Shown: positions 3,047 through 46,065, numbered from the stretch's first letter. The stretch is 47,461 nucleotides of DNA from Atopobium sp. (GCA_018378955.1 JAGZWL010000001.1:1-47461), one strand, 5' to 3'. Notes: generated from the sequence alone by a model not told the origin. Numbers and translations: made by a program.

Positions 3047-3982
3047 ATGAGTTCTTACATTGGAAGATTTGCGCCAACTCCTTCTGGAAGGATGCACCTA
3101 GGCAACGTTTTCTCAGCGCTTATGGCTTGGGCCAGCGTTCGCTCCCAAAATGGCAGCTTTATTCTTCGCATCGAAGACTTGGATATTCGTGCTCATAATC
3201 CTCAATACACCTCCCTTCTCCTGGATGATTTACAGTGGTTGGGACTAACTTGGGACAGAGGGCCGTTTTTCCAAAGCAAGCGTTCGGAACTCTATCAGGA
3301 CGCTCTATTGAAATTGAAACAACAGAAACTTTTGTATCCTTGCTTTTGTTCCCGAGCAGACTTACACGCTGCACAAGCTCCTCATGCCAGCGATGGTGCA
3401 TATGTCTATGCGGGAACCTGCCGCGACCTGAGCAAATCCAAGCGTGAAGAGCTTTCCAAACATAAAATTCCAGCAAATCGCATACGAGTTCCTAATAAGA
3501 CCTACGCGTTTGAAGACAAAGTCTATGGTCAAACATCTCAAAATCTTTCTAAATTATGTGGAGACTTTATTGTCCAGCGTGCAGACGAAGTCTTTGCATA
3601 TCAGCTTGCTGTAGTAGTTGACGATGCTGACATGGGCGTAACTGAAGTAGTTAGAGGATCAGACCTTCTCTCGTCTACTCCTCGACAGCTTTATTTACAA
3701 GATGTGCTTGGCTTTTCTCATCCCATCTATGCTCACCTCCCGCTACTTGTTGCGCCAGATGGCAGGAGACTTTCTAAACGCAATCACGATCTAGACCTTG
3801 GTGTTCTGAGAGACCAAGGAAAAACACCAGAAGAGATTCTTGGCTTTCTGGCTTATTGCGTAGGTCTTGCAGAAAAAGAAGAACCTCTTTCTGCAGTACA
3901 AGTTGCCAATCGCTTTTCATGGGATGTACTTCGCGCTCACCGAAAAAACGTGGTTGTTGAGCATTTTTCACATGTTTTGTAA
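3047..3982 (+). CDS. gluQ: Glutamyl-Q tRNA(Asp) synthetase
   Basis: GRFAPTPSGRMHLGN (HIGH-like), LRIEDLD, YPCFCSR, YQLAVVVDD, RLSKR; 311 aa with no anticodon-binding domain. Confidence 0.92.
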   Translation: MSSYIGRFAPTPSGRMHLGNVFSALMAWASVRSQNGSFILRIEDLDIRAHNPQYTSLLLDDLQWLGLTWDRGPFFQSKRSELYQDALLKLKQQKLLYPCFCSRADLHAAQAPHASDGAYVYAGTCRDLSKSKREELSKHKIPANRIRVPNKTYAFEDKVYGQTSQNLSKLCGDFIVQRADEVFAYQLAVVVDDADMGVTEVVRGSDLLSSTPRQLYLQDVLGFSHPIYAHLPLLVAPDGRRLSKRNHDLDLGVLRDQGKTPEEILGFLAYCVGLAEKEEPLSAVQVANRFSWDVLRAHRKNVVVEHFSHVL

Positions 3983-10023: not shown

Positions 10024-11283
10024 ATGGTTTCTTCTGATACAACACATATTTCTGATACACCTGCACAAGAGCCCATCAGCGCTCCTGGTCGTTGCGAGCT
10101 GCCACTTGATGGCCGAGGCGACGCAGAAGCAGTTTCAGGTTCTAACACCTTTATTTCTTGGGGCGCCCGCTCTGACGTGGGATTAGTTCGCGAGCACAAC
10201 GAAGACTCATTCCTTTTGCGTACCCCTCTCTTTGCTATCTGTGACGGTATGGGTGGTCATGCTGCTGGTGAGGTAGCAAGCTCTATTGCCGTTAAGGTCA
10301 TTGCTGAGCAGGCGCCAAGTACCGCAGACGATGTTCGTCTTGGCGCTGCAATTGAGGCTGCTAACCAGGAAGTTATTGACGCTCCTGCCAAGGGCATTGG
10401 CAAACCAGGCATGGGTTCTACCGCCTCAGCCGTTCTCATTGAGGGCAATCAGATGGCTGTTGCCCATGTTGGCGACTCTCGTATTTACCTGCTTCATCAC
10501 GGAACTTTGGTCCGCATTACTCACGACCACAGCTACGTTGAGGAACTCATTGATTCTGGCCAGATTACCGCTGATGAGGCGCGTACACACCCTTCTCGCT
10601 CCGTAGTTACGCGAGCTCTTGGCTCTGATCCAGACATGTATGCAGATCATTTCTCGCTTGAAGTATCTGATGGTGACCGCATCATCTTGTGTTCTGATGG
10701 CCTTTCTGGCATGGTGCCCGACGACGAGATTGAATCCATTGCGGTCTCTAACGTCACGCCGCAAAAGGCCGCAGATAATCTTGTTTCTGCAGCTCTTACT
10801 TATGGCGGATCTGACAATATCACCGTTATTGTCATTGATGTCTTAGACGACGGTATAGCCGATCAAACCAGACGTCACCTTACCCGTGGCGTCATTGCAA
10901 CGTTTATCTCGTTTCTTGCGCTCTTTGCTGCCACTGTTGCCGTGTTCTTCCTGTTTGTAAGTAGCGAGTGGTACTTAGGAATTAACGGAACTACCGTTGG
11001 CGTTTATCGAGGTATTCCTACAACAATCGCCGGCATAAACATGTCTTCGCTTGTTGAGACTACGTCTATTGAAATAAAAGATTTGCCTGACGCAGTTCAA
11101 GACTCACTAGCCGAAGGAATCCGCGTCAAAAACGAGGATGAAGCGCATAGTACCGTCGAGAATTACCGCAAACAAATTGATGACGCCAACACTAAAGCGG
11201 TCAAAAAGAAAGAAGACGCTCAGTCTGGCGGAACGCCCACAACAGAAACAACAACGTCAACAACAAGTTCGGGAGGTGAGTAG
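10024..11283 (+). CDS. PP2C-family Ser/Thr phosphatase with a TM anchor (PstP/Stp1)
   Basis: REHNED, DGMGGH, HVGDSR, LCSDGL, GGSDNIT; C-terminal TM; ATG 10024 after AAGAGG. Confidence 0.93.
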
Positions 11284-39105: not shown

Positions 39106-39898
39106 GACGATTCACTTCCTTTGCAAGTTTGTTATATGCAAGTGCGCCCATGCTTATTCGTGCGTACATGGTTACTGGCAAACCATGACTTGGTGCCTCA
39201 GCAATTTTGACGTTTCTTGGAATAAGTGTCTTGAATACCTTGTTACCAAAGTAATTAGATACTTCATTGACTACCTGCTTAGATAGGGAAGTTCTACTAT
39301 CAAACATGGTCATTACTACGCCAAAGATTTCAAGATCTGGATTAAGCTGTTTTTGCACCATCTTCATTGATTCAACAATTTTAGTAACGCCTTCTAGTGC
39401 ATAATACTCGCACTGAATTGGGATAAGTATGCTATTTGCTGCAACTAAGGCGTTAATTGTTAGAAGCCCTAATGATGGTGGGCAATCAATCAAAATATAG
39501 TCAAAATACTCTTTAACCTGGTCGATTACTCTTTTTAAAATATTTTCTCTTGATTCAACGGAGACAAGTTCAATTTCAGCACCGGCAAGTTGAATAGTTG
39601 CTGGTGCAATAGTTACGTATTTCTGAACTGTTTGCTGCAATACCTCTTCGATTGGCGTTTCATTGAGAATTACGTCATAAATATCAGCTTCAAGTTCCTC
39701 TTTATCAATTCCAAAACCACTTGTCGCATTTCCTTGTGGATCGAAATCAATAATGAGAACTTTCTTCTTTGTTTCACCTAATGCGGCGGCAAGATTAATT
39801 ACGGTAGTTGATTTTCCAACTCCGCCTTTTTGATTAATTACTGCCAGAACTTTAGGATCTCTATCCTGAAATCCCCTCAAAAGGTCTTTGTAGCTCAT
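39098..39898 (-). CDS. parA: ParA/Soj ATPase
   Basis: NQKGGVGKST, DFDPQGNAT, IDCPPSLG, QCEYYALEG, AEAPSHG. Confidence 0.97.
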   Translation of the reverse strand: MSYKDLLRGFQDRDPKVLAVINQKGGVGKSTTVINLAAALGETKKKVLIIDFDPQGNATSGFGIDKEELEADIYDVILNETPIEEVLQQTVQKYVTIAPATIQLAGAEIELVSVESRENILKRVIDQVKEYFDYILIDCPPSLGLLTINALVAANSILIPIQCEYYALEGVTKIVESMKMVQKQLNPDLEIFGVVMTMFDSRTSLSKQVVNEVSNYFGNKVFKTLIPRNVKIAEAPSHGLPVTMYARISMGALAYNKLAKEVNRRG

Positions 39899-39937
39899 TT
39901 ATCCTCCGTTTGACCAAGTTTATTTAATAATACAGAA

Positions 39938-39953
39938 TGTTTCACGTGAAACA
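39938..39953. promoter_or_regulatory. parS site
   Basis: Perfect TGTTTCACGTGAAACA between rsmG and parA (palindrome extends 39935-39956). Confidence 0.95.
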
Positions 39954-39961
39954 TTCCACAA

Positions 39962-40720
39962 TTACCCTCTTCTTGCAACAAACGGATTTGATTTAGCCAT
40001 TCCAGTTTTTCTTGGTAATTTGACTTTGCTCTTTGCAACTTTTTTGTATAAAAGAATTTCTCGATGGCCAAGATTGTTTGGTAAGTCAAATGTTTCACGT
40101 GAAACATTTTTATACCCAAAAATTTTGGCTGCCTGAGAGGCGTCCTGCAGCTCTATCTCATCAACATTGGCCTTCATTACTATAAGAGTGCCCTGTGGGG
40201 CTAAGAAAGGCTCTGCGTACTCCAAAAGAATATTTGCCTTCGCAACAGCTCTAAATGTTACAAAATCAAACTTCTGTTTATAAGCATTTGGAATTTCTTC
40301 TGCACGAAGCTTCTCAGCCCTAACTCTCTCATTTAGACCAATCTCATCAATCATTGACTGAACCGCATTGATCTTTTTTCCAATAGAGTCAACCAATAGT
40401 GTTTTATTGTCACTCATGATTGCAAGAGGCAGTCCAGGAAAGCCGCCACCGGTACCAATATCAATATAGTTGTGAGTACCAGATAAAAACTCGTTACACA
40501 CTTTGAGTGGTAACAAAGAATCAAGAATATGGAGCACTAGCGCGTCATCAACCGAAGTAATTCTTGTAAGGTTCAGATTCTTATTTATCTCAATTAGTAG
40601 TTCAATATGTTTCAGAAGCTGTCTTCTTAGGTGCTCTGTTGAATCGATTCCATAGGTAAGGAGAAGTTCCTTAAGTACATTCTCTTTTGAATCGAATAAC
40701 GACTTCTCTGATTCAGACAT
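39962..40720 (-). CDS. rsmG: 16S rRNA m7G527 methyltransferase
   Basis: NLTRI, HILDSL, DIGTGGGFPGLPLAI, RAEE, RAVA; ATG 40720 after AGGAG. Confidence 0.95.
   Translation of the reverse strand: MSESEKSLFDSKENVLKELLLTYGIDSTEHLRRQLLKHIELLIEINKNLNLTRITSVDDALVLHILDSLLPLKVCNEFLSGTHNYIDIGTGGGFPGLPLAIMSDNKTLLVDSIGKKINAVQSMIDEIGLNERVRAEKLRAEEIPNAYKQKFDFVTFRAVAKANILLEYAEPFLAPQGTLIVMKANVDEIELQDASQAAKIFGYKNVSRETFDLPNNLGHREILLYKKVAKSKVKLPRKTGMAKSNPFVARRG
40091..40106. promoter_or_regulatory. parS site inside rsmG
   Basis: Perfect TGTTTCACGTGAAACA (encodes ..VSRET.. in RsmG). Confidence 0.93.
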
Positions 40721-40794: not shown

Positions 40795-40823
40795 ATCAAA
40801 TTAGTAAAGCTTGTTGAAAATTC

Positions 40824-41408
40824 TTAGCCGTTAATAGCTGTAACAACAACGCGGCGGTATGGATCATCGCCCTCAGAGTGTGTTGTAACTTCAAGATTAT
40901 CTCGAAGTGCGATGTGAATGATACGGCGCTCATAACCACTCATTGGAGCAAGAGAAACCTTACCAGTCTTCTTAGCACGAGAAGCAGCAGAGAGTGCCAT
41001 CTCCTGAAGCTTATTGCGACGACGGCTCTTATAGCTTTCAACATCAACAGATACTGGATAGTGGAAGTGAAGCTTAGCGCTCATCAAAGACGAAAGAACC
41101 ATCTGAAGAGCCTCAAGCGTATTGCCGTGACGACCAATAAGAATTGCAAGATCTCCACCGGTTACGTCAAGAATGAGCTCACCGTCTTCTCCATCGTACT
41201 CATCAATTGCACAGCTATTCTCGCCAAAGAACGAGAGGAGCTCTCTTAGATAGAAGACAGCAGTATCAGCAATCTTATTCATCTCAGCATCAGTAAGCTG
41301 AATTCCAGCTTCAAAGTGCTCTCGAATTGAAGCAAACTCGTCTTGTGAATCAACGACAGGAGACTCATTAAGAGCGTTTGGCTCAGAAACGAAAGTCTCA
41401 TCCTCCAT
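40824..41408 (-). CDS. jag: Jag/KhpB/EloR RNA-binding protein (KH + R3H)
   Basis: LIGRHGNTLEALQ (KH), ERRIIH (R3H), SEG.DPYRRVVV; conserved position after yidC. Confidence 0.92.
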   Translation of the reverse strand: MEDETFVSEPNALNESPVVDSQDEFASIREHFEAGIQLTDAEMNKIADTAVFYLRELLSFFGENSCAIDEYDGEDGELILDVTGGDLAILIGRHGNTLEALQMVLSSLMSAKLHFHYPVSVDVESYKSRRRNKLQEMALSAASRAKKTGKVSLAPMSGYERRIIHIALRDNLEVTTHSEGDDPYRRVVVTAING

Positions 41409-41496
41409 GTCGTCCTCCAGTCAATATAAAAAGTTTAACTATTAATCTACTGTAACAAATTCTGTAAACAAAAGTTATTTTGTTTAACCCCAGCTC

Positions 41497-42255
41497 TTAG
41501 GCCTTTTTGTGAGGGCGTGGCTTCTTTTCTTTTCTCACCACGTCTACCTCGATTGGCTTATTAGCCATCTGAGCCTGTGCCTTGAGCTTCTCTTTTTCCA
41601 TAATACGCTTGGTAATAAGCTGCTGCTGAGCAAGCTGCCAAATACCAGAAGTTACGTAGTAGAGAAGAACAGCTGCTGGCACAGTCCAACCAAACCAGAG
41701 CATCATGAGGGTCATCATGCCGCCCATCATGTACTGCTGGGTACGCTGCTCACCGGAGCTTGTACGAGCGTTTACTGCCATGGAAAGGAAAGTAGTAAGG
41801 CCAAACAGAAGAACAAAAATCATGTAAGGGATAGCGGTAACAAAGCCATCAACAGCAAAGATGTCGGATGTTGCACGCGCAATAGAAGGAAGAATGTTGT
41901 AGAAGCGGGAGTCTACTGGAACCATCTTTGCAACGGTAAAGAGTGCAATAAAGATAGGGGACTGTAAAAGCAGTGGTAGACAACCACCAAGAGGATTGAA
42001 GTTGATTTCAGCGTAAAGTTTACGCATCTCTTCATTCTGCCTTACAGGATCATCGGCATAGCGCTCCTGGATTTCTTTGAGCTTAGGCTGAACAACACTC
42101 ATACGAGCCATAGAGGCCGTCTGCTTGTTGGTCATTGGAACCAGGATAATACGGATGATGATGGTAAGCAGGATAACTGCCATACCCCAGTCTCCCGAGA
42201 ATGATTGAAGTCCCGCTAAGACTGTGTATAGAAAGTTAACAATCCAATCCCACAT
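41497..42255 (-). CDS. yidC: Membrane protein insertase YidC
   Basis: WGMAVILLTIIIR, QPKLKEIQERY, NPLGGCLPLLLQ.PIF, LYY. Confidence 0.95.
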   Translation of the reverse strand: MWDWIVNFLYTVLAGLQSFSGDWGMAVILLTIIIRIILVPMTNKQTASMARMSVVQPKLKEIQERYADDPVRQNEEMRKLYAEINFNPLGGCLPLLLQSPIFIALFTVAKMVPVDSRFYNILPSIARATSDIFAVDGFVTAIPYMIFVLLFGLTTFLSMAVNARTSSGEQRTQQYMMGGMMTLMMLWFGWTVPAAVLLYYVTSGIWQLAQQQLITKRIMEKEKLKAQAQMANKPIEVDVVRKEKKPRPHKKA

Positions 42256-42275
42256 ATTTCCTCCGGTGCGTTCCT

Positions 42276-42512
42276 TTACGGAACGGGATCGTATCCTCCC
42301 TTATGAAAAGGGTGACAGCGAGCAATACGCTTAAGAGCAAGCCAACTTCCCTTTTTAACACCATACTTTTGTATGGCCTGAACTGCATATTCGGAGCAAG
42401 TGGGCCGATAAATACAGTGAGGCTTAAAAAGGGGAGAAATGTTTCTTTGATAGAAACGAATAGCACCCAGGAACAAGTTTGCGAGAAAAGATTTTTGTCT
42501 TTTCTCGCTCAT
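42276..42512 (-). CDS. yidD: Membrane protein insertion efficiency factor
   Basis: [32 protein letters not shown]. Confidence 0.95.
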
Positions 42513-42832
42513 TTGACCCCTGTCTTTCTTAACAAAGCATCCAAAGAAACGCTTATATCAGCAGGATTAGTGCTGTGTGTATCTTTAGTCGCAAAGAGAA
42601 TAATGCCGTATCCCTCAACAGGTAAACCGCTCTTTCGAGCTGCTTCGCGTAAAACGCGTTTACACCTGTTTCTAAATACGGCGTTACCTAGTCTTTTTGG
42701 AGCTACAAAGGCTACCTCGGAAGGATGTGCCTCAGTGGATGGTGCTACTCGTATACGAAGAACAGAACTTTGAGCCCTCTTCCCCGCGGAGAAGACCCTT
42801 TCAAACTCTGAACGAGATTTAATGGTCTTCAC
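42509..42832 (-). CDS. rnpA: RNase P protein component
   Basis: [18 protein letters not shown] (RNR motif); between rpmH and yidD. Confidence 0.93.
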
Positions 42833-42843
42833 AGAAACATTCC

Positions 42844-42978
42844 TTAGACAGTGAGGCGCTTACGGCCCTTAAGGCGACGACGAGCGAGAACGGCACGACC
42901 ATTCTTAGTTGCCATACGTGCACGGAAACCGTGGGTAGTTGCGCGCTTGCGCTTATTTGGCTGGTAGGTACGCTTCAT
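42844..42978 (-). CDS. rpmH: 50S ribosomal protein L34
   Basis: Translated by hand: [52 protein letters not shown]. Confidence 0.97.
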
Positions 42979-43340
42979 AGCTATTTCCTCCCGAACGGGT
43001 ACAGTATCGATTAAAAAGCCTACAGATTGTACTCGCGTTTATGGGTACCTGTCAAATTTTCTACGCAAATACCTCAACTTTTTCTCTTTTTTATTCAAAA
43101 GCCTAGCGAGAAAACCTTTCATTTTGAAAATTTCACTTGTGATACATGAAGAAATTTGTTGAAAGGAATATTTCTGTAAGCTGAAATATGTCCGGTAAAT
43201 GCTACTATCATTCAGTACGTCTTTCACAAAGATACAAAGTTATCTACAGATGTTTAACACTTGTTGAAAACTTTCATTCACTGTGAAAGGAAACGAAAAG
43301 TTTTCTTCATTTGTTTAACAATTGTTGAAAAGGAGGTGTC

Positions 43341-44219
43341 ATGGCAAGAGATTTCTTTCCTTTTGTTGAGGAAAACACCAACCAGGATGAAAAAGATGCT
43401 GGTTCTGATAACTCTCTCACCGTCCGCTATGCTGCACGTATTGCAGTGTATGACGATAAAGCCGCAGCACCTCGCGTTGTTCTTGTAGAACCTAAAGATG
43501 CTCGTTCTTATCTTGACGAGATTGCAGCAACCGTTAACCAGCTTGCTCACGAGCAGGGTGGAAAAATTCCTTTTATGGTTATGCGCGAGATTGTGGAGAA
43601 TTTCATTCATGCTCGCTTTGTAGCACCCACAATCTCAATTATGGACAACGGAAATACCATTAGGTTTTCAGATCAAGGACCTGGTATTAAAGAAAAAAAC
43701 CGAGCTCTTGAGTTTGGTACCTCTTCTGCAACGGAAGAAATGAAATCGTTTATTAGAGGCGTTGGTTTTGGTCTTCCTTATGCTCAGCAATATATGGTTG
43801 AGAAGGGTGGAAGCCTTACCCTTGAAGACAATATCTCTGGCGGAACAATTGTTACCTTGTCAACACGCCGCTCTAAAGATGCTCATATTCAGACACTTCC
43901 AACTCAAGAAGAAGCTGAAGAATTGCCTGTTAATCAAAATCAGCAGGCAATTTCACATGCCCCACAAGCAGTATCTCAACAGGTATCTGCACAACCAGCT
44001 GCACAACTTCCTAATCTGGTGTTAACAGATCGAGCAAAACAAGTTCTTCAATATCTCTCTGAACATGAATGGGTTGGAGCAACAGAACTCACTAGTGCCT
44101 TTGGCCTTTCTACACCAACCTGGTCAAGAGAATTAAAATCGCTGGTAAACATAGGAATAATTGGAAAAGTTGGGCAAAAATATAAGCTTACTACTATTGG
44201 AGAAACCCTCCTTTCATAG
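43341..44219 (+). CDS. GHKL/HATPase-fold ATP-binding protein with a C-terminal winged HTH
   Basis: REIVENFIHA (N box), DQGPGI (G1), GVGFGL (G2), GGTIVTL (G3); Q/A/P linker; LTDRAKQVL...ELTSAFGLS.PTWSRELKSL..GII...Y.LT (wHTH); AGGAGG RBS. Confidence 0.82.
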   Translation: MARDFFPFVEENTNQDEKDAGSDNSLTVRYAARIAVYDDKAAAPRVVLVEPKDARSYLDEIAATVNQLAHEQGGKIPFMVMREIVENFIHARFVAPTISIMDNGNTIRFSDQGPGIKEKNRALEFGTSSATEEMKSFIRGVGFGLPYAQQYMVEKGGSLTLEDNISGGTIVTLSTRRSKDAHIQTLPTQEEAEELPVNQNQQAISHAPQAVSQQVSAQPAAQLPNLVLTDRAKQVLQYLSEHEWVGATELTSAFGLSTPTWSRELKSLVNIGIIGKVGQKYKLTTIGETLLS

Positions 44220-44302
44220 AGTTTCTCAACATTATTCGCTGAAAGTTATCAACATTCCTCTATACTAGGTGTCCCAATTTTCAACATTTTGATTGGACAC
44301 GT

Positions 44303-45832
44303 ATGGATGCATCAATTGATTCAGACGCAGTAGCTCTGTGGCAAGACGCAATTGACCTTTTGGTTGAAGAGAATCAGCCAGAGGCTTTTATCGCCATGTT
44401 GAGAACCTGCACTCCAATTAAAGTTGAAGATAATACGCTCTATGCTGAGACTCCAATGCGCTTGGCATATAACCGTATCCTTAAGAATCTGCCAATTGTT
44501 GAGAGATGTCTCTCGGCTGCGGCCTTTGAAGATATTATCTTAAGTCTTACGCTTACAAAGTCTTCTACTCCTGTTACAACTACTTCTACGATGACTCCTC
44601 AAGAGTTCAACGCTTGGAAGCAGAAAACCGCTCCTATACAGGCTGTTGTTCCAGAACAGATTCAAGATTTTGAATCCCAGGAACAGAGTCTTGAAGAATT
44701 AAAACAACAGACGTTAAAGAGACGTAAGAGTAATCCTCTTTATGAGGAGACATCCTTCAATTCAAATCTCACGTTTGATCGCTTTGTTGTTGGTGACGAG
44801 AATGAGCTTGCTCATCAACATGCTTTAAATGTTGCAAACGACGCAAAAGGTAAGGCAAACCCACTCTTTATTTACGGTGCAAGTGGACTTGGAAAAACTC
44901 ACCTTCTGCGAGCCGTTCAGAACTACATCAACGCTGAAGATATCGAGCGCGTTTGTGTTTACAAAGACGCAGATGCCTTTGTTGATGACTACGTAAATGC
45001 AGTTCGTAAAAACGCTTCAGGAAACGCAGCAACAGAACTGAGTAATAACTACCAAAACATTGACGTTCTTATCATCGATGATGTCCAAAAACTTGCTGGT
45101 AAAGCGGGTACCATCAACTTCTTCTTCAATATTTTTAACTCTCTTATTGATAGAGGTAAGCAGATTATTCTTGCAGCCGATAGAACTCCAGCTCAGCTCG
45201 GTATGGGCTCTGACGGTTTTGATGATCGTATTACTTCTCGTATGAGTGGTGGCATTGTTATTGGCATTGAGTCTCCAAGTTACGAGATGAAGCTCAATCT
45301 TATTCACGTCTTCTGCGACCGAGCTTTTAAAGAGAGAAATTCTTCTCTTTCTGCAGATGATATGCCAGAAGATATTCGTCGCTATATGGCTGATAAGGCC
45401 GGTCAAAGTATTAGAACTCTTGAAGGCTTCTGTAATCGTTGCGTCACTGGACAAATCAAAGCAAAAGAGTCCGGTAAAAACATTAAGCAAGAAGAGATTG
45501 ATAAGATTGCAGATACTCTTTGGCGACGCGTTTCAAAGACCGTAAATATCGAGAAGGTCCAAGAAGTCGTAGAGAACGTCTATGGCATTAGCCATCGCGA
45601 TATTGTTGGTAACAAGAGAAATAAAGAAATTGCAGAGCCTCGTCATGTTGCACTTTATCTTGCTCATGACCTTTGCCAATACACGCTGGTAAATATTGGT
45701 AAGCATTTTGGAGGAAGAAAACACGCAACAATTTTGCACAGTATTGAGGTAATTGAAGAGAGAATCAAAGAAGACAAAAGCTTCTATGATCAAATTTCTC
45801 AACTCAAGAAGACTATCCTTGAACAAAGTTAG
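44303..45832 (+). CDS. dnaA: Chromosomal replication initiator DnaA
   Basis: TFDRFVVG, NPLFIYGASGLGKTHL, IIDDVQ, RTLEG, PRHVALYL, HFGGRKHATI. Confidence 0.97.
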   Translation: MDASIDSDAVALWQDAIDLLVEENQPEAFIAMLRTCTPIKVEDNTLYAETPMRLAYNRILKNLPIVERCLSAAAFEDIILSLTLTKSSTPVTTTSTMTPQEFNAWKQKTAPIQAVVPEQIQDFESQEQSLEELKQQTLKRRKSNPLYEETSFNSNLTFDRFVVGDENELAHQHALNVANDAKGKANPLFIYGASGLGKTHLLRAVQNYINAEDIERVCVYKDADAFVDDYVNAVRKNASGNAATELSNNYQNIDVLIIDDVQKLAGKAGTINFFFNIFNSLIDRGKQIILAADRTPAQLGMGSDGFDDRITSRMSGGIVIGIESPSYEMKLNLIHVFCDRAFKERNSSLSADDMPEDIRRYMADKAGQSIRTLEGFCNRCVTGQIKAKESGKNIKQEEIDKIADTLWRRVSKTVNIEKVQEVVENVYGISHRDIVGNKRNKEIAEPRHVALYLAHDLCQYTLVNIGKHFGGRKHATILHSIEVIEERIKEDKSFYDQISQLKKTILEQS

Positions 45833-46065
45833 TGTTTAAAACCTGTTCGTAAGATGTCAATTGGTGAAGAGAAGTACTGGTTTGGTGTTGAGAGTTTAAG
45901 AGAGGGAGTTTTACTTTGTTTATGAATGTCAAAAATAAGCAAACAAATCTGACCTCTAGAAACATATTTCTACCTCTAGAAATGTAAAGCTTTCTTCTTT
46001 TCAACATAGCTTATTATTACTACGATATTTTTATTCTTATCTAAGAAATAATAGAAAGGGTCGTC
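45833..46065. other. oriC unwinding region (dnaA-dnaN intergenic)
   Basis: TTTTCAACA box (45998-46006), short spacer, DnaA-trio-like TAT-TAT-TAC-TAC (46012-46023), then an AT-rich tract before dnaN. Confidence 0.8.

Follow-up and report, generated by a model that had tools for sequence, protein, structure and literature searches.

The window analysed here, the whole 47,461-nucleotide stretch of Atopobium sp. DNA (GCA_018378955.1 JAGZWL010000001.1:1-47461), comes from a genome that we placed in Lancefieldella, family Atopobiaceae; its DnaA is 98-99% identical to records named Lancefieldella parvula or Atopobium sp. The region of interest carries, in this order, rpmH, a gene for a protein with ATPase and helix-turn-helix (HTH) domains, dnaA and dnaN, together with a series of putative variant DnaA boxes. 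The features, including one cluster on another contig of the genome, are as follows.

40812..40820, minus strand: isolated TTTTCAACA just downstream of jag (exact match; jag domains found)
42844..42978, minus strand: left boundary of the origin region, presumably rpmH (open reading frame; identity read off the translation)
43157..43165, minus strand: putative variant DnaA box CTTTCAACA (exact match; one position varies in 1/39 close loci)
43240-43248, plus strand, TTATCTACA, and 43262-43270, minus strand, TTTTCAACA: oppositely oriented pair of putative boxes, offset 22 (exact match)
43323..43331, minus strand: TTTTCAACA, putative variant box immediately beside the ATPase-HTH gene's ribosome-binding site (invariant in 41/41 loci)
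43341..44219, plus strand: HATPase_c and winged-HTH gene in the rpmH-dnaA interval (Pfam PF02518 above its cut-off; HTH matches below theirs)
44223..44286, plus strand: three putative boxes in the dnaA upstream spacer, TTCTCAACA at 44223, TTATCAACA at 44246 and TTTTCAACA at 44278 (invariant in 42/42 loci)
44303..45832, plus strand: dnaA, 509 aa, single copy (TIGR00362, 355.5 bits against a cut-off of 343.9; PF00308 and PF08299)
45689..45727, plus strand: base-reading residues of DnaA, V463 at 45689-91 (E. coli P423), K473 at 45719-21 (D433), H474, and A475 at 45725-27 (T435)
45886..45894, minus strand: putative variant box CTCTCAACA in the dnaA-dnaN spacer (exact match and close-locus comparison)
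45990-45998 and 45998-46006, plus strand: putative tandem basal-unwinding boxes, the distal CTTTCTTCT overlapping the proximal TTTTCAACA (trio-anchored search; invariant in 43/43 loci)
46011..46060, plus strand: DnaA-trio-like repeats (46011-46022), then an AT-rich tract, the predicted unwinding element (from sequence; layout as in PMC8287927)
46066..47166, plus strand: dnaN, right boundary (three DNA_pol3_beta domains)
Contig C150 of this genome (G000), 10761-11050 (L327:2262-2550): box cluster in the rplI-dnaB spacer of roughly 450-500 bp

We predict that this region is the bipartite replication origin of a Lancefieldella, with clusters of putative boxes flanking dnaA on both sides in the rpmH-dnaA-dnaN context. 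The dnaA product is the one match in the genome, scores above the curated TIGR00362 cut-off over its full length and has both an AAA+ domain and a C-terminal HTH. On this one contig, the cumulative GC skew reaches a minimum of -2.05 at 44-45 kb and climbs by 0.43 within the 13 kb that follow. An earlier note on this DNA had taken the 45998 box as the basal-unwinding box, lying directly before trio-like repeats; its trio-proximal position holds, although four nucleotides (TAGC) intervene, and it is the proximal member of a tandem pair with a degenerate distal partner. Basal-unwinding regions have been described as a box no more than 16 bp from three or more NAN trios, usually within a tandem pair (PMC8287927); here the tandem boxes are followed by a 4-nt spacer and four trios, a layout common to 58 of the 70 Atopobiaceae loci that we compared. 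In 128 of 130 loci across the Coriobacteriia, dnaA is preceded by the HATPase_c and winged-HTH gene; a search of curated families returned no match for this gene, and it may be a bystander or a candidate class-specific regulator of initiation or of dnaA. The boxes between this gene and dnaA are likely to serve autoregulation of dnaA; a promoter-like 9/12 match across the 44246 box is weak and at chance level. Elsewhere in the window, repeated 'MFHVKH'-type reading frames occur at 39895-40120 near parA/rsmG, and we take these to suggest parS-like palindromes beside parAB. With regard to the isolated site downstream of jag, a DnaA-bound site has been reported at thdF-jag in B. subtilis (PMC2533591).

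All ten variant 9-mers listed in the earlier note are present where, and on the strands, it had claimed, and its statement that the spacers around dnaA lack TTWTNCACA was borne out by exact search: the four copies in the window lie at 3964, 19057, 26427 and, within dnaA itself, 45732. The eight copies of TTHTCAACA in the window all fall within 40812 to 46006, and the densest 3-kb cluster of this motif in the genome (seven sites, starting at 43262) is the one found here, clusters on other contigs having three sites at most. The motif is also enriched near oriC: the three origin spacers, 678 bp together, contain six sites where 0.025 would be expected from the rest of the non-coding DNA, in which six TTHTCAACA occur over 164,628 bp as delimited with a crude ORF mask. 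Among exact TTNTCNACA spacer sites at this origin, position 6 is A in 6/7 and C, the mark of the canonical box, in 0/7. In 45 close loci, positions within the boxes are variable in 5/89 cases versus 101/589 elsewhere in the spacers (Fisher p=0.004, with non-independent kin), and where position 6 differs within the species, the change is A to G (2/40) or T to A (1/40), with none to C.

The base-reading residues of DnaA domain IV are R399, P423, D433, H434, T435 and H439 in E. coli numbering (PMC2533591, PMC7561715). Alignment to 1J1V upheld the observation that three of four E. coli reading residues are substituted here (P423 by V463, D433 by K473 and T435 by A475); R399, H434, T436, L438 and H439 are retained, leaving three of the six base-reading residues (R399, H434 and H439). 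The reading residues are fixed in 44/44 close loci. Secondary literature gives D433 simply as base-specific (PMC2533591, PMC7561715), and PMC8235120 assigns it to box position 7, not 6.

We surveyed position 6 at 130 dnaA loci of the Coriobacteriia, counting exact TTNTCNACA sites in spacers with position 6 left free. Seventy loci were taken from 115 matches of an Atopobiaceae family search (the 30 best-scoring and 40 hand-picked to span genera) and 60 from other families, chosen among the class-search matches listed, with 46 weaker matches lying outside these; some upstream spacers are incomplete because the first 30 loci had just 1.5 kb of upstream flank. Residue 433 in the Atopobiaceae is S in 52 loci, T in 10, K in seven and V in one, never D (0/70), and A435 is present in 67; position 6 of their boxes is A209, G85, T72 and C15 (C in 15/381). 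At the 57 Coriobacteriia loci that keep D433 it is C167, A86, T6 and G5, with C and A making up 96%. The C share is graded, from 81% in canonical lineages (other orders with canonical P/D/T, 28 loci: C121, A25, T2, G1) through 52% and 24% in two intermediate families (f2, 16 loci: C27, A22, G2, T1; the sister family f3, 14 loci, D11 and N3: A46, C16, T3, G1, about 70% A) to 4% in Atopobiaceae; two loci of another family, f4, have C5, A3 and G2. By guess, we take f2 and f3 to be Eggerthellaceae and Coriobacteriaceae. At least one site with G or T occurs in 60/70 Atopobiaceae versus 11/57 D433-keeping loci, and the share of G and T is 41% versus 4%. From these family-wise counts, drift from C to A starts with Asp present, and G and T occur in bulk only without it. 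Origins devoid of any C box number 58/70 in Atopobiaceae versus 5/57 where D433 is kept. When each genus is represented by a single locus, Atopobiaceae give A85, G42, T29 and C13, with shuffle expectations of 1-2 each; the C boxes are about tenfold over expectation (13 versus 1.26), so that C is disfavoured at position 6 rather than forbidden. The locus with the most divergent Atopobiaceae recognition helix (L094, genome G087: V433, P435, Y439) has boxes with A2, G2 and T2. At neighbouring positions, T at position 7 makes up 17% in Atopobiaceae versus 15% in a D433-keeping family, and position 5 is C in 381/475 sites when positions 5 and 6 are both left free. A phylum outgroup (29/30 loci parsed, all D433) gave C121, A3 and T1, a weak comparison because 111 of the C sites stem from seven loci of one family.

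Several candidate determinants were rejected. AT-driven drift was ruled out because C is deficient in all three GC3 bins (at GC3>0.8, C in 12/241 Atopobiaceae sites versus 55/96 where D433 is kept), and over 33 genus rows none of the base fractions was correlated with GC3 (all p>0.29). A general avoidance of C-form boxes throughout the genome was ruled out, as the genome has 35 copies of TTWTCCACA versus 47 of TTWTCAACA. P423 was rejected since lineages without P423 but with D433 and T435 keep 52% C, and K433 as a specifier of A since the K433 genomes L093 and L101 use G and T. In four loci with P423, D433 and S435, C makes up just 29%. Loss of D433 and T435A coincide in 67/70 Atopobiaceae loci, and thus the effects of the two residues are inseparable; at two loci that combine D433 with A435 the origin is devoid of C (A8, T1), although dnaB has two C boxes in one of these cases. 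In a DnaA tree built without domain IV (90 rows, quick method), Atopobiaceae form one clade (SH-aLRT 96), and the main position-6 contrast is therefore a single evolutionary event.

The variant sites may be taken as DnaA boxes by their positional homology with canonical boxes. A trio-anchored search, in which boxes were located from the trios and position 6 was left unused, found the trio-adjacent tandem pair in 58/70 Atopobiaceae, 44/57 D433 and 2/3 N433 loci; the trio-proximal box has C in 1/58 Atopobiaceae (A21, G21, T15), 36/44 D433 and 0/2 N433 loci. The oppositely oriented upstream pair, offset 22-23, is conserved in each of the four groups compared, with an offset of 22 in 57/70 Atopobiaceae and of 23 in 20/28 canonical lineages. 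Both the inverted pair and the trio-adjacent tandem carry C boxes in the lineages with canonical boxes.

A genome scan with the variant motif also exposed a second cluster, unlinked to the origin, in the spacer that separates rplI from the helicase gene dnaB. This cluster, which is likely to be a DnaA-regulated dnaB promoter or a titration site, is conserved in 29/31 Atopobiaceae and 8/9 sister-family genomes. Across the 31 Atopobiaceae genomes (29 with sites) its position 6 is A38, G14, T11 and C1 (C in 1/64), and across 30 other genomes (14 with sites) C18, A8, G1 and T1 (C in 18/28). The same shift at two unlinked loci points to an altered shared reader. The box-initiator co-evolution that the earlier note had proposed is supported in part: box and initiator co-vary across Coriobacteriia, both at boxes in homologous positions and at dnaB, and loss of C6 tracks the domain IV changes. 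Those changes track the boxes as regards D433 and T435 but not P423, which is also lost where about 50% C is kept. Origins with K433, as in RKHAT, were found to lack C boxes (C in 0/7 origins; A35, T10, G3). However, most relatives have S433, and G and T make up 41% of position 6 in the family, so that the code is neither private to RKHAT nor specific for A; 'C disfavoured at position 6' describes the variant better.

Outside this contrast, metagenomes were searched for DnaA in which residue 433 is N, K or T, and 80 loci among more than 120 matches were examined, of which 26/80 have a long open frame with dnaN downstream. A K/T433 clade of five such loci, which comes without a D433 sister control, has C in 1/19 sites. 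This clade (L176, L232, L238, L240, L248; K or T433, S435) has TTWTGAACA, two changes away from consensus, in 12/19 sites. A low-GC N433 clade of five loci, likewise without a D433 sister control, has C in 9/71 sites; a high-GC N433 clade of 13 loci has C in 9/12, often with G at position 5; L253 (D to N) has C in 8/8; and the remaining two loci have A4. Genome G253 (D to N) keeps C at both the origin and dnaB. As N433 lineages keep C, Asn does not force the change, and a change at residue 433 is not sufficient for it; C with N433 would fit Asn retaining an acceptor oxygen. In the dnaA-dnaN spacer of L253, N433 goes with G at position 5 (TTATGCACA in 8/8 sites), and in the high-GC clade, L208, L218, L222, L226 and L243 combine N433 (T in L243) with G at position 5, which suggests that residue 433 also affects that position. 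Viral contigs, searched as a D433 control outside Actinomycetota, yielded a full-length dnaA with downstream dnaN in 0/80 loci (of more than 120 matches). In these loci (L390-L469) the motif of the recognition helix lies for the most part in short frames (median 196 aa), none with dnaN downstream, which might be stand-alone domain IV-like proteins that bind host origins.

The comparison supports well the view that a variant DnaA/DnaA-box system is real and Atopobiaceae-wide, and an essential initiator and its binding sites have likely been re-tuned together. At the predicted bipartite origin, DnaA probably reads a re-tuned TTWTC[A/G/T]ACA with the textbook C6 disfavoured. Domain IV would bind the variant sites, and DnaA would assemble at the tandem boxes and open the trios as in B. 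subtilis. In the major groove, an amino donor is presented by C and A and an acceptor by A, G and T; A has both. On the assumption that D433 contacts base 6, the ancestral Asp433, a hydrogen-bond acceptor, would tolerate only the amino-bearing bases C and A, which matches their 96% share where Asp is kept. Sites could then have drifted to A with Asp still present, as in the sister family, before Asp gave way on the Atopobiaceae stem to Ser, which can act as a donor (Thr or Lys later on), along with T435A; these residues would favour the acceptor-bearing A, G and T over C. Adenine, both donor and acceptor, would be the bridge base on which the origin stayed working. A bolder and more tentative proposal, which we regard as possible though short of an even chance, is that residue 433 is a donor/acceptor switch for position 6 (C/A with Asp; A/G/T with Ser, Thr or Lys), that Coriobacteriia keep the complete recoding walk through A at origin and regulon, and that independent switches occurred in other phyla.

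The strongest rival holds that DnaA has stopped reading position 6 altogether and that sites wander neutrally from an ancestor that already had A. The presence of A, G and T with free turnover between genera, the predominance of A in the sister family, the persistence of C boxes at about ten times background and the ease of A-to-G transitions all fit such relaxation. However, T and C both require a transversion from A, and yet T outnumbers C by 72:15 (42:12 in genomes with GC3>0.8), and the dnaB sites independently show the same deficit (T11:C1). We therefore consider relaxation unlikely, although it deserves to be taken seriously. A strict recoding to A along the lines of the earlier note, under which TTHTCAACA is preferred and sites with G or T would be weak, is considerably less probable. 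A is indeed the commonest base (55% Atopobiaceae-wide, 42/48 in this genus and 6/7 at this origin), but the trio-proximal box is G as often as A, genus g5 has G in 15/17 sites, the K433 genomes L093 and L101 use G and T, and this genome's own dnaB cluster reads T, T, G, A. It is still more improbable that the canonical C box (TTTTCCACA) remains preferred over TTTTCAACA in an origin built from low-affinity sites: such boxes are normal in E. coli and B. subtilis origins (PMC13220808), but the absence of any C box from most Atopobiaceae origins and few D433-keeping ones, the extension of the shift to dnaB and its coincidence with the loss of reading residues argue against this. Least credible of all are operators of another protein, for example the adjacent HATPase-wHTH protein, whose HTH-bearing gene lies among the sites, one box abutting its ribosome-binding site, and the conserved inverted pair would suit an operator; yet that gene also accompanies canonical boxes, the inverted pair and the tandem are C boxes in the lineages with canonical boxes, and this origin offers no other DnaA-box candidate.

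It has long been asked how specificity can shift in an essential protein and in its many sites, themselves essential, without passing through a lethal intermediate, and Coriobacteriia provide a graded series that is approachable by single substitutions in a small domain. If the switch at residue 433 is true, DnaA-box identity would be predictable from domain IV sequence, and an essential initiator with all its sites would have been recoded through adenine, accepted by both states. For Atopobiaceae, we advise that origin finders and oriC-plasmid designs use TTWTC[AGT]ACA.

Lineage- and species-specific DnaA boxes are already established in the literature, and the literature covered also included PMC4285127, PMC10225481, PMC5742627 and PMC9825612; a search that covered few subscription journals, with DoriC outside its scope, returned no account of Atopobiaceae DnaA boxes. 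An identical TTTTCAACA is given, on the basis of DoriC, as a non-perfect DnaA box of Lawsonia intracellularis (PMC2671203); that box was defined in silico in an unrelated phylum, and the passage in question draws no link to domain IV. The Epsilonproteobacterial boxes (TTCAC core) are likewise lineage-specific and tied by their authors to substitutions in domain IV helix 5 (PMC5043019); there, however, position 5 is fixed as T and C6 and Asp-His are kept, whereas here Asp is lost and position 6 is changed. In H. pylori-type boxes, rare C-to-A changes at position 6 are tolerated, and one box that has G there, with A at position 5, does not bind DnaA (PMC5043019). With the B. subtilis oriC the present origin shares tandem boxes, a short spacer and trios in the dnaA-dnaN gap and an upstream cluster (PMC8287927), but here an extra ATPase-HTH gene splits that cluster, and the proximal tandem box is the better one and the distal degenerate, whereas the upstream box tends to be closer to consensus in that study. 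Compared with canonical DnaA (E. coli 1J1V; B. subtilis 8BTG), the family, the domain IV fold as judged by sequence and R399, H434 and H439 are the same, as are the 9-mer and its conserved positions 1, 2, 4, 7, 8 and 9; in contrast, P423, D433 and T435 are replaced here, position 6 is A, G or T, and position 5 is held at C.
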